DNA of 25,957 nucleotides from Candidatus Heimdallarchaeota archaeon (GTDB lineage: Archaea; Asgardarchaeota; Heimdallarchaeia; Heimdallarchaeales; Heimdallarchaeaceae). Location: NCBI GenBank assembly GCA_019057375.1, contig DXJF01000152.1:1-25957 (forward strand), written 5' to 3'. Numbering within the stretch: the first letter of the stretch is position 1; every line of letters starts with the position of its first letter. The notes below the pieces were generated by a model. The model saw only the letters and a list, made by a program, of their open reading frames with translations. It ran no database searches and was not told the origin of the DNA. Made by a program: the position numbers and the translations under genes. Of the stretch, positions 1,294 to 4,146 are shown piece by piece.

Positions 1294-1509
1294 TTAATCC
1301 CTTTCTTTCACGATAAAAGCCTTAACAAGCTGCAAAATTGCAATCAAAGCGATTAAGTATCCCCAGAAAGTGAACGTAGTCCACCAAGGACTCATACCAA
1401 AATTGAAAGCTAAATTAAGCCCTATTAAGTTACCAGAATCAAAAACTGAAAGAGCTAAAAACAAAGAAGCAATTGCTTGAAACAGAGAAATTATTCTATA
1501 TCCAGCCAT
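1294..1509 (-). CDS. Small hypothetical membrane protein (71 aa, about 2 TM helices)
   Basis: ATG start, two hydrophobic stretches and a KERD tail, fills an intergenic gap, and has a BRE-TATA-like element about 20-35 nt upstream. Confidence 0.7.
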   Translation of the reverse strand: MAGYRIISLFQAIASLFLALSVFDSGNLIGLNLAFNFGMSPWWTTFTFWGYLIALIAILQLVKAFIVKERD

Positions 1510-1592: not shown

Positions 1593-2105
1593 TTAATCTT
1601 TTTTCTCAAGAAGTTTGTATTTTTTAGCTAATTTTTCTGCTAATGCTTCTTCCTCTAAAGCATGTTTTTCATCTTTGCTTAATTCTTCAGGTAACCAAGT
1701 AGGTAGTTTTATTTCCTTCTCTTTATAATAAGTTCTAATAGCTCTTCTTAAAGCTCCTACTGCTAAAGACCCACAATGTGTTTTAACTGAAGGTAAACCA
1801 CCTAAAGCATCAGATACATCAGCCCAAGTAATTTTCCATGCTTCTTCAAGAGATTTGTTTTCGATCATAATTGTAAGCTGACTAGCTGCTGCAATGTTTG
1901 ATGCGCATCCATAGCTTTCAAAACTCGATTTAATAATAATAGCATTTTGTTCATTTAGTTTTAGATAGAAAGCTATCATATCTCCACAAGCTGGACTTCC
2001 AGCTGCAGCATAAACAGTCGCATCTTCCATTCTTCCAAGATTTTGGGGATTTTGAAACAATTCAAGAACTCTGGGTGCATAAGGTAAAGGTATTCTACTC
2101 GACAT
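1593..2105 (-). CDS. iscU: IscU/NifU-type Fe-S cluster scaffold protein with a charged C-terminal extension
   Basis: NPQNLG, GSPACGD, YGCASNIAAAS and VKTHCGSLA motifs; all three Cys plus the Asp and His positions are present. Confidence 0.93.
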   Translation of the reverse strand: MSSRIPLPYAPRVLELFQNPQNLGRMEDATVYAAAGSPACGDMIAFYLKLNEQNAIIIKSSFESYGCASNIAAASQLTIMIENKSLEEAWKITWADVSDALGGLPSVKTHCGSLAVGALRRAIRTYYKEKEIKLPTWLPEELSKDEKHALEEEALAEKLAKKYKLLEKKD

Positions 2106-2119
2106 GCTTTATCATCCTC

Positions 2120-3331
2120 TTAAAGTTCGATTCCTCCGGTTATAGATCGGATTCTATTAATGATTTTAGGCATTCTTTCTAGAACATGATTGATTTGGTC
2201 TTCAGTATTTAATCGGTTAATTTTCATCAGTAAACTCCCATGAGCCTCTTCTGGTTTCCTTCCAATTGCAGTCAATATATGACTTGGCATAAGTACTCTA
2301 CTAGTGCAAGCACTACCGCTTGATACATAAATTCCATTCATACTACATTCAACAGTTAACGCTTCTCCTTCACATCCTAAGTAGCTTATATTTACATTAT
2401 CTGGAGCTCTACGTTCTCCTGAAGGACCATTAATCTCAGTTCGTTCAATACTTGTTTGGAGACCATATAATAGTTTATCTCTGAGGTTTTGTGTGTGATT
2501 TTTTATTTCATCGAAACGATTGAATTGAATCTCTACTGCTTTTGCGAAACCAGCTAGAAGAGCAGGATTCTCTACATCCGGGGAAAGAATTTCAAGACTC
2601 AATTGTCCTTCATAAATTGATTTAATTTTTATTCCATCTTTAACATATAATCCTGCAATACCTTTAGGACCTAAGATTCTGTTGCTATTAATTGTAGCTA
2701 AATCAACCTCAACTTTTCCATAATCCAATGGTATTCTTCCAAATGCAGAAGTTGCATCTGTATGGAATAATATACTGTCATCTTTGTCTTTTACAATTTC
2801 CAATGCTTCTTTAACTGGTTGAATTGTACCAATTTCATGATTGATTGTTTGTAAACTTACTAAAAGAGTGTCATTATCAATCTTTTCATGTAAAATATCA
2901 AGATTCATTGTTCCATCATTGGAAACAGGAATAATCTCCACTTTGTACTGATCACCAAACATGGATTTTGCTGTATGAATAACACTCAAATGTTCTGCTT
3001 CTGAAACAATAATCTTTTTTCGTTTTTTATTCATTTTCGCAATTCCTTTAATTGCAAGATTATTAGATTCAGAAAAACTATGTGTTAATGCTAAGGCTTG
3101 AGGATCTATGTTTAAGGGTTCAGCAATTTTTGTTTTTGCTTTCATATAGAAATCAAGAGTTTCCCAACCCATGTGATGTGTTATTGCAGGATTACCAAAA
3201 GTTCTCTCAAGATAAAAGGGGCGCATTTCTGCATATACTTCCTTATCTACGACGGAACCGTTTTCCCAGTCTAGATAAACTTCCTTTTCAGGTGTTCCAT
3301 GCTGTTTCAATAAACCTTCTATGTTCGACAT
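2120..3331 (-). CDS. iscS: IscS/NifS-like (class V aminotransferase fold) protein lacking the PLP Schiff-base lysine
   Basis: FGNP, EHLSV, NHEIGTIQP, HTDAT, GPKG and SSGSACTS..PSH motifs. The canonical SxHK reads NSNR (R218, AGA codon at 2678-2680). Adjacent to iscU. Confidence 0.88.
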   Translation of the reverse strand: MSNIEGLLKQHGTPEKEVYLDWENGSVVDKEVYAEMRPFYLERTFGNPAITHHMGWETLDFYMKAKTKIAEPLNIDPQALALTHSFSESNNLAIKGIAKMNKKRKKIIVSEAEHLSVIHTAKSMFGDQYKVEIIPVSNDGTMNLDILHEKIDNDTLLVSLQTINHEIGTIQPVKEALEIVKDKDDSILFHTDATSAFGRIPLDYGKVEVDLATINSNRILGPKGIAGLYVKDGIKIKSIYEGQLSLEILSPDVENPALLAGFAKAVEIQFNRFDEIKNHTQNLRDKLLYGLQTSIERTEINGPSGERRAPDNVNISYLGCEGEALTVECSMNGIYVSSGSACTSRVLMPSHILTAIGRKPEEAHGSLLMKINRLNTEDQINHVLERMPKIINRIRSITGGIEL

Positions 3332-3336
3332 TAGAT

Positions 3337-3591
3337 TTACTCCAATATTTTGGCAAGAAATTTCTCAATGTGATCTACCTCAGAGAGCATTAACTTTCCA
3401 GTTCTGTAGAAAGATAAGCTAGTTTTATCAAATTGAAACTTTTCAACCATGTTGCCAATTTTTTGTATTAGTTTTCCTTTTTTTGAAATCTTTTCATAGA
3501 CTTCATCAATAGTACCCCATTTGAGCATAACGACATAACTATTGTCTTTTTTACAACTCTCTACTATCGAATCTATATATTTCTGATACAA
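3337..3591 (-). CDS. Small hypothetical protein (84 aa, single Cys), co-transcribed with iscS/iscU
   Basis: Stop lies 5 nt before the iscS start; mixed alpha/beta pattern with SFYRTGKLML near the C-terminus. Confidence 0.75.
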   Translation of the reverse strand: MYQKYIDSIVESCKKDNSYVVMLKWGTIDEVYEKISKKGKLIQKIGNMVEKFQFDKTSLSFYRTGKLMLSEVDHIEKFLAKILE

Positions 3592-3636: not shown

Positions 3637-4146
3637 TTAATCTTTGTTTTTATCAATTTTTTTCTCTGTTTCCTTTAGCAATATTTTACATTTCCAACAG
3701 AGATAAGTGGGCTTGAGAATTGCTTCTTCTAGATTCTTAGAATATTGCATAACACAGACTTCTTTGCAATGACCCAACCCCAAAATATGACCACATTCAT
3801 GAAGACTTTCCTTTATTTTCATGTTTTCTGATTCTAGTCTAAAAAAAGATACAATACCACCATAAAATTGAGTTGCTAAACCAAATACAAAATTCCTCTC
3901 AGGAACGTATAAATCTTCGTTAACTAGCCAAAGAAAATAAGTTATGTTTTCCTCATCAATCAACATGTTCAGCAATTGTTGACCATTATACTGATTCCTA
4001 GCTTTATTAAAAGTAACAATCTCAAGCTCTCTTCTCTTAATTAATTGGATACCAATTTCATAAGTTATCTTCAATTCTTCGACAACTTTCTCAACTACAT
4101 TATAACTAATAGAAGGATCATGGAATACTGTTAGATTGGGAAGCAT
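3637..4146 (-). CDS. amzA: Archaemetzincin (peptidase M54) zinc metalloprotease
   Basis: HECGHILGLGHC (HExxHxxGxxH+C), CVM Met-turn, LCxxC, RNQY and FVFGLA motifs. Confidence 0.93.
   Translation of the reverse strand: MLPNLTVFHDPSISYNVVEKVVEELKITYEIGIQLIKRRELEIVTFNKARNQYNGQQLLNMLIDEENITYFLWLVNEDLYVPERNFVFGLATQFYGGIVSFFRLESENMKIKESLHECGHILGLGHCKEVCVMQYSKNLEEAILKPTYLCWKCKILLKETEKKIDKNKD

Follow-up and report, generated by a model that had tools for sequence, protein, structure and literature searches.

What an IscS-like protein contributes to Fe-S cluster assembly once the lysine that forms its Schiff base has been replaced is the question raised by this locus, where such a protein is encoded beside an IscU scaffold. 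The window, that is, the whole 25,957-nucleotide stretch of DNA that was analyzed, corresponds to contig C106 in a genome (G000) of 3.47 Mb that is 89% complete. The gene under study, here called iscS*, lies among closely spaced genes on the minus strand:

iscS*: 2120..3331, minus strand; ATG start, 403 aa (protein P0001); IscS/NifS-like pseudo-desulfurase with Arg218 and with Cys342 in an SSGSACTS loop
iscU: 1593..2105, minus strand; Fe-S scaffold of 170 aa, starting 14 nt past the iscS* stop codon
orf84: 3337..3591, minus strand; small alpha/beta protein of 84 aa, ending 5 nt before the iscS* start codon
archaemetzincin-like metalloprotease gene: 3637..4146, minus strand; 45 nt upstream of orf84, scoring 110.6 bits against NCBIfam archmetzin, below the cut-off of 145

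The preliminary description of this DNA considered iscS* alone. The gene belongs instead to a conserved three-gene unit, orf84-iscS*-iscU. The archaemetzincin-like gene, which adjoins orf84 in most loci of the family, is a candidate fourth member. Just downstream of iscU, a hydrophobic ORF of 71 aa (1294-1509, minus strand) recurs at the same position in 17 family loci with 48-93% identity and probably encodes a small membrane protein.

Fold and nearest relatives of iscS*

The iscS* product has the class V aminotransferase fold of fold type I, matching Pfam Aminotran_5 (PF00266) with 158 bits. It falls below every NCBIfam desulfurase cut-off, with 325.7 bits against 530.75 for NifS, 276.4 against 643.2 for IscS and 274.2 against 548 for PRK14012. 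The nearest solved structure is that of Archaeoglobus fulgidus IscS (AfIscS; E 1e-78), and the AF2 model (pLDDT 90.6) superimposes on structures of IscS, NFS1 and NifS, 4r5f and 4eb5 among them, with TM scores of 0.87-0.95. Database matches at 67-81% identity carry Heimdallarchaeota or Heimdallarchaeaceae names. When 1.8 billion cluster representatives were searched, two scored 413 and 398 bits, after which the scores fell sharply to 310 bits or less. An N-terminal extension of about 14 aa carries the motif LLxxHG.

Loss of the residues for PLP chemistry

The activity of E. coli IscS requires His104, Asp180, Gln183, Lys206 and Cys328, and its Arg354 binds the carboxylate of the substrate cysteine (PMC9978102). 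The residues of iscS* were mapped onto P0269, a representative of the IscS subfamily that scores 658 bits against NF010611 (cut-off 548) and whose numbering is that of E. coli, shifted by +1 at Thr243 and by +2 at Cys328 and Arg354. The motifs quoted in the preliminary description were all found where it had placed them, namely H84-S-F-S-E88, H114 within AEHLS, D192-A-T-S195, N215-S-N-R218, E241-G-Q-L-S245, S250-P-D-V253 and S337-SGSACTS with C342. In the mapping, H114, D192 and C342 correspond to H104, D180 and C330 of P0269 and are kept, and S87 stands at the position of T76. Q183 is replaced by S195, H205 by N217, the Schiff-base lysine K206 by R218, T244 by V253 and R356 by L368, while the GGG of canonical enzymes has become GQ. 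The last of these substitutions in the mapping is one that the earlier description did not mention: Leu368 takes the place of E. coli R354, and therefore the arginine for the substrate carboxylate has been lost as well. Thus, residues that hold the PLP O3', the PLP phosphate and the cysteine carboxylate are all replaced in iscS*.

The protein had also been called more degenerate than AfIscS, and a HMMER alignment bears this out, since AfIscS retains SGATE, GGGQE and RSGS where iscS* has HSFSE, EGQLS and SPDV. On these grounds, PLP-dependent cysteine desulfurase activity is very unlikely, and to that extent the proposed loss of PLP chemistry stands. The stronger term "PLP-independent" does not, because His114, Asp192, Asn164 and Ser216 are conserved and because AfIscS still binds PMP (PMC8918507). 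With these four residues and a Thr or Ser at position 87 conserved, and with a residue at position 218 that is almost always basic, the pocket may accept a pyridoxal-type ligand non-covalently or may have been put to another use.

Conservation within the family

Of 31 genomes from the same family, 27 yielded an orthologue of iscS*, which is full length (403 or 404 aa) and free of stop codons in 22 genomes. Arg218 is present in 17 of these 22 genomes, where it is encoded by AGA (15), AGG (1) or CGG (1), and the other five have a lysine codon (AAG/AAA). The spread of Arg218 over three codons in independent assemblies excludes a sequencing error, so the suspicion that AGA had been misread for AAA can be set aside, as can the idea that all relatives of iscS* are canonical at this site. 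In the Heimdall set of the alignment, which combines the 22 family genomes with five database proteins, residue 218 is R in 18, K in 8 and H in 1. None of the 121 canonical representatives lacks the Schiff-base lysine, nor does any of the 15 other, non-Heimdall sequences of the clade to which iscS* belongs (clade X, described below). A tree of 48 Heimdall-clade sequences requires at least eight changes of state at position 218, among K, R, H and S, and 47 of the 48 have a basic residue there (K, R or H). Repeated change in one lineage, set against an invariant lysine elsewhere, indicates that the Heimdall lineage no longer needs the lysine as a Schiff base. Judging from the alignment, constraint on the lysine position is relaxed in this lineage and a basic residue is still preferred.

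The gene as a whole shows strong purifying selection. Of 13 pairs compared, 12 have a dN/dS of 0.05-0.11, and the exception, with 0.21, is the least diverged. The loss of several catalytic residues might suggest that iscS* is a decaying relic, or even an artefact of sequencing. The comparative data refute this notion: dN/dS is about 0.05-0.1, the length is constant, no stop codons occur in 22 genomes and independent assemblies specify Arg218 with three different codons.

Phylogenetic position

An alignment and a tree with AfIscS and canonical IscS, as the preliminary description had proposed, place iscS* apart from both. It falls in an archaeal clade with an SH-aLRT of 99, for which the name clade X is introduced here, and the Heimdall sequences form a long-branched subclade within it (support 100). 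The members of clade X come from Heimdallarchaeaceae, other Asgard groups, Bathyarchaeia and other TACK lineages, the last comprising Culexarchaeia, Methanomethyliaceae, non-ammonia-oxidising Nitrososphaeria, Thermoproteales and Desulfurococcaceae.

The equivalents of Gln183, Arg354 and Thr243 are absent from every sampled member of clade X. Shared derived residues are H for N165, D/E or S/A for Q195, Q for G243 and L for R368, and E246, R250 and T253 (T253V/I) have also been lost throughout. The N-terminal extension of about 14 residues with LLxxHG is likewise common to the clade, and C342 and the SSGSAC mobile loop of the catalytic cysteine are invariant across it. The protein from the window carries these derived residues and shares the association with a long IscU and orf84. 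The stacking histidine, His114, is replaced by Pro in about half of the non-Heimdall members, with Lys218 kept. Because the lysine is strictly retained in these other members, they may still bind PLP.

The AfIscS-like representatives (P0126, with SSND, P0154, P0175 and P0205) are found in the other half of the tree, and 13 Lys-less representatives are scattered among the roughly 135 sequences outside clade X. Since Lys-less proteins of the AfIscS kind belong to a different clade, loss of the lysine has been independent and recurrent. The assignment of iscS* to the A. fulgidus type is therefore not upheld by the tree, which gives no orthology with AfIscS. A further candidate relationship, in which iscS* would represent the archaeal ancestor of eukaryotic NFS1 (an idea taken from PMC12872458), was also rejected. 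The protein is 29-31% identical to NFS1 as against 36-37% to AfIscS, and the representatives of IscS proper group apart from clade X.

It could still be argued that iscS*, its active site remodelled, works as a desulfurase or as some other enzyme that uses PLP or PMP. The conserved H114, D192, N164, S216 and T/S87 fit such an enzyme, as do the invariant lysine of the non-Heimdall members of clade X and the trace activity that is left in the K206A variant of E. coli IscS (PMC9978102). This explanation is nevertheless very improbable. Arginine is unable to form the internal aldimine, even close relatives switch between K, R, H and S at position 218, the equivalents of Q183, R354 and T243 are all gone and the score of iscS* lies far under every NCBIfam desulfurase cut-off.

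The IscU partner and orf84

The IscU encoded in the window has all of its ligand residues (C40, D42, C67, H110 and C111) and the LPSVK motif. It scores 122 bits against Pfam NifU_N and, among NCBIfam models, 115 bits against NifU_clost, 91 against IscU and 45 against SufU; the genome has no other NifU_N gene. The IscU gene adjoins iscS* in every family locus with enough flanking sequence. More broadly, a long IscU (median 167 aa) stands beside iscS* in nearly all of the more than 80 clade-X loci sampled, downstream of it as a rule and upstream in one locus (L081), and the ligands are invariant in 84 aligned clade-X partners. Residues from about 130 to 170 form a charged, partly conserved C-terminal extension of about 40 aa (P.W...E..A.EEE.L), which is common to clade-X IscU.

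The third gene of the unit, orf84, is located directly upstream of iscS* in 26 family loci, and in most clusters of Bathyarchaeia a homologue comes after sufS or iscU. Two residues do not vary in the orf84 family: Cys13, and Gly65, which is part of a [ST]GK turn. Searches of Pfam and NCBIfam returned no significant match for orf84 (weak Pfam hits only, E 0.004 and 0.0075), and its nearest clusters in the ESM Atlas are hypothetical proteins of Bathyarchaeota. The AF2 model (pLDDT 94.4) has a TBP-like alpha/beta fold with weak structural matches only: VIA Z scores of 7.3 (YgiF) and 7.0 (archaeal TBP) are within the range of a common arrangement of secondary structure, and Foldseek gave nothing below 1e-3. 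Among the structural matches listed there is no SufE, TusA or frataxin structure. From the position of the gene and the single invariant cysteine, we infer that orf84 may act as a sulfur carrier.

A protein with a mobile cysteine loop might also serve pathways other than Fe-S assembly. Canonical IscS supplies many acceptors (PMC2854127), and the TBP-like fold of orf84 weakly matched a MoaD-related protein in its C-terminal domain (1v8c, Z 5.5). By extension, iscS* could be a sulfur-relay hub for tRNA thiolation or molybdopterin synthesis, with IscU as one client among several. The adjacency of IscU in nearly all of the sampled clade-X loci speaks against such a hub, as does the finding that the operons showed neither thiolation genes nor MoaD/ThiS genes, and it seems a shade less probable even than a remodelled enzyme.

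Gene order and the source of sulfur

The order iscS*-iscU-sufS-orf84 was found in about 40 loci of Bathyarchaeia. The SufS proteins encoded in these operons exceed the TIGR01979 cut-off of 475, with 584 and 579 bits, and have the motifs SGHK and RSGFHCAQP. In the Heimdallarchaeaceae the orf84 homologue has shifted to the place just ahead of iscS*, giving the order orf84-iscS*-iscU, and no sufS was found within the flanks of the iscS* loci. Instead, the genome studied here has one intact-looking SufS-like gene on another contig (C22), whose product retains SVHK and RSGNMC, is 37% identical to Bathyarchaeia SufS and, with 390 bits, remains under the TIGR01979 cut-off (475). Of the 31 Heimdallarchaeaceae genomes, 28 have conserved this gene, with identities of 70-96%. 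Because sufS is unlinked in the Heimdallarchaeaceae, a connection from SufS to iscS* would be drawn there by analogy with the Bathyarchaeia operons.

Several other SufS-encoding loci were encountered. The same genome has a tandem pair of SufS-like genes on contig C74 (L002:1459-2646 and L002:2824-4017, both minus strand; 395 and 397 aa) whose products lack the Schiff-base lysine (SSGCIGALGP and SSGDIGALGP) and keep the cysteine of RSGALCSH. Together with iscS*, this makes three Lys-less desulfurase look-alikes in one genome, beside one intact-looking SufS. The cluster iscS*-iscU-sufS-orf84 also occurs in two bacterial MAGs, one of Thermoanaerobaculia (L100) and one of Acidobacteriota (L102), where iscS* is 41-42% and IscU 59-62% identical to the proteins of the window. 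This suggests that the cassette moved between domains as a whole, or else that contigs were mis-binned. Two Bathyarchaeota MAGs have the sufS of the operon in two pieces, as overlapping ORFs (L077:5712-6963 and L084:5703-6972), through either a frameshift or an assembly error.

Sulfidic sediments are the habitat of the Heimdallarchaeaceae, and the preliminary description had named sulfide as a possible donor. Accordingly, iscS* might be a purely structural or ligand partner, with the clusters on IscU built from free sulfide and no desulfurase taking part. This is the role that has been proposed for AfIscS, and minimal archaeal systems are known to assemble Fe-S clusters from sulfide (PMC13066941, PMC12442378). 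Additionally, sufS is unlinked to iscS* in this genome. Even so, sulfide is not favored here as the source, and this version, the most serious of the competing explanations, is unlikely. A canonical SufS is encoded inside the homologous operon in Bathyarchaeia, as in the two bacterial MAGs, an intact-looking SufS-like gene is present in nearly all genomes of the family, and an orf84 with an invariant cysteine looks more like part of a sulfur relay than like something that a supply of free sulfide would require. As the clade-X operons themselves provide a likely sulfur source, a relay fed by SufS ranks above the sulfide-fed version.

The Fe-S repertoire of the genome and the empty SUF site

The preliminary description had called for a search of the genome for SufS, SufBC and a second canonical IscS. 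Apart from the SufS-like gene on contig C22, this search returned no SufB and no second type I desulfurase; none of the latter was found in any family genome at E<=1e-40, and the two genomes with two hits proved to contain fragments of one gene. In the 89%-complete genome, neither a SUFBD_core protein nor SufE nor an A-type carrier was found by search. One Mrp/NBP35-type gene accompanies the single NifU_N gene.

Among the family genomes, SufB was detected in 9 of 31, and within this genus in 4 of 24. A direct comparison is provided by a sister genome (G014; iscS* 97% identical to the copy in the window), which contains the following stretch:

segment of about 7.7 kb: contig C21 of the sister genome, about 108354-116103 (L119, L123); feoB, a wHTH gene, a Fer4/FMN-reductase-like gene, sufB and sufC

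The flanks of this segment are contiguous in the genome studied here, on contig C158 at about 44964-45053 (L122), which is a clean empty site. Because the flanks are joined, the absence of sufBC at this site is real, and an assembly gap was rejected as its explanation there; the apparent absence of SufB, SufE and carriers from the rest of the genome may reflect its incompleteness. With the segment present in a sister genome and missing here, the SUF scaffold is an accessory trait that varies within a single genus. With a single IscU and no detectable SufB, orf84-iscS*-iscU is probably the main de novo Fe-S scaffold of this genome.

Comparison with known minimal systems

The closest known counterpart is the IscS2-IscU pair of A. 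fulgidus (PDB 4EB5, 4EB7 and 4HVK; D199K variant, 4R5F). Its IscS likewise folds as a type I desulfurase and matches iscS* best in both sequence and structure. In both proteins the equivalents of the Schiff-base lysine, Gln183 and Arg354 are lost, the cysteine loop is kept and an IscU gene is adjacent. AfIscS lacks the lysine, has no desulfurase activity and contributes its cysteine as a ligand to the cluster on IscU (PMC7585200, PMC8918507, PMC13066941). In contrast to iscS*, it belongs to another clade, retains the phosphate-binding motifs and has Asp rather than Arg at the lysine position, whereas the N-terminal LLxxHG extension and the conserved orf84 partner belong to iscS*.

The remaining comparisons concern systems that are less closely matched. 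IscS1 of Methanosarcina acetivorans has been reported without the catalytic lysine and the PLP-binding residues, and its partner IscU1 is unusually long (24 kDa) (PMC7585200). This pair (MA0808/MA0807), which was compared by description only, resembles the present one in combining a Lys-less IscS with a long IscU but differs in being reported in a cluster with four other genes of unknown function rather than with orf84. The MIS system (MisS-MisU; Garcia et al., 2022) appears in later accounts as an archaeal core of two genes, IscS-like and IscU-like, with no chaperones or carriers (PMC13066941, PMC12442378). By that description, to which the comparison is confined, it is alike as a minimal two-gene core. 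However, in those accounts MisS is a cysteine desulfurase and no additional components belong to the system, whereas iscS* is without the catalytic residues and is accompanied by orf84, and in Bathyarchaeia by SufS. Finally, the SufS-SufU system of Firmicutes is alike in that the Bathyarchaeia cluster encodes a type II SufS with a protein of the IscU family. Here that protein is of the IscU type instead (His110, LPSVK; 91-115 bits against the IscU and NifU models as opposed to 45 against SufU), and the clade-X cluster has a pseudo-IscS alongside and no SufBCD.

A review from 2026 describes minimal IscS/IscU-type systems as the least studied and as lacking extra components (PMC13066941). That a Lys-less IscS can stand beside IscU is already known since the A. 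fulgidus structures. What is new, within the literature searched, is the distinct clade, the shared loss of Gln183, Arg354 and Thr243, the linkage with SufS and orf84 and the probable role as sole scaffold in this genus; a full-text search, which Garcia et al. (2022) lay outside, found no description of any of these.

Proposed role of the unit

The cysteine loop and the IscU partner are both intact under strong purifying selection, and the best reading is therefore that iscS* serves beside IscU as a scaffold or ligand partner, as put forward in the preliminary description, or as a sulfur relay. Specifically, iscS* is most likely a non-catalytic docking partner of IscU, whose cysteine loop ligates the cluster or relays sulfur and which is probably fed by SufS; the probability of this reading is put at about 0.6. 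In such a mechanism, an iscS* dimer would dock two IscU molecules, as in the (IscS-IscU)2 complex of A. fulgidus. The Cys342 loop could then supply a transient fourth ligand to the cluster, pass on a persulfide, or do both. The intact SufS-type enzyme encoded at the unlinked locus on contig C22 would mobilise sulfur in trans, and this sulfur might pass through the invariant Cys13 of orf84.

A more far-reaching proposal can be made for clade X as a whole, though only tentatively, as it is rather more likely to be wrong than right. The clade may possess an undescribed hybrid of the ISC and SUF machineries, in which a type II SufS makes the persulfide, orf84 and the cysteine loop of the dead IscS relay it and the dead IscS docks IscU. 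This hybrid would be the sole de novo Fe-S system in most members of the genus, as these lack SufBC.

Implications for Fe-S biogenesis in Heimdallarchaeaceae

The order of genes in clade X suggests a concrete and testable route for sulfur, from SufS to orf84 and/or the cysteine loop of the dead IscS, and from there to IscU. Most members of the genus are without SufBC and would have this unit as their only means of de novo Fe-S assembly; if the hybrid reading is true, the clade-X unit would therefore be the housekeeping Fe-S system of close archaeal relatives of eukaryotes. Overall, the unit may be the sole Fe-S scaffold in the genus, a point that matters for reconstructing how the archaeal ancestors of eukaryotes made their Fe-S clusters.
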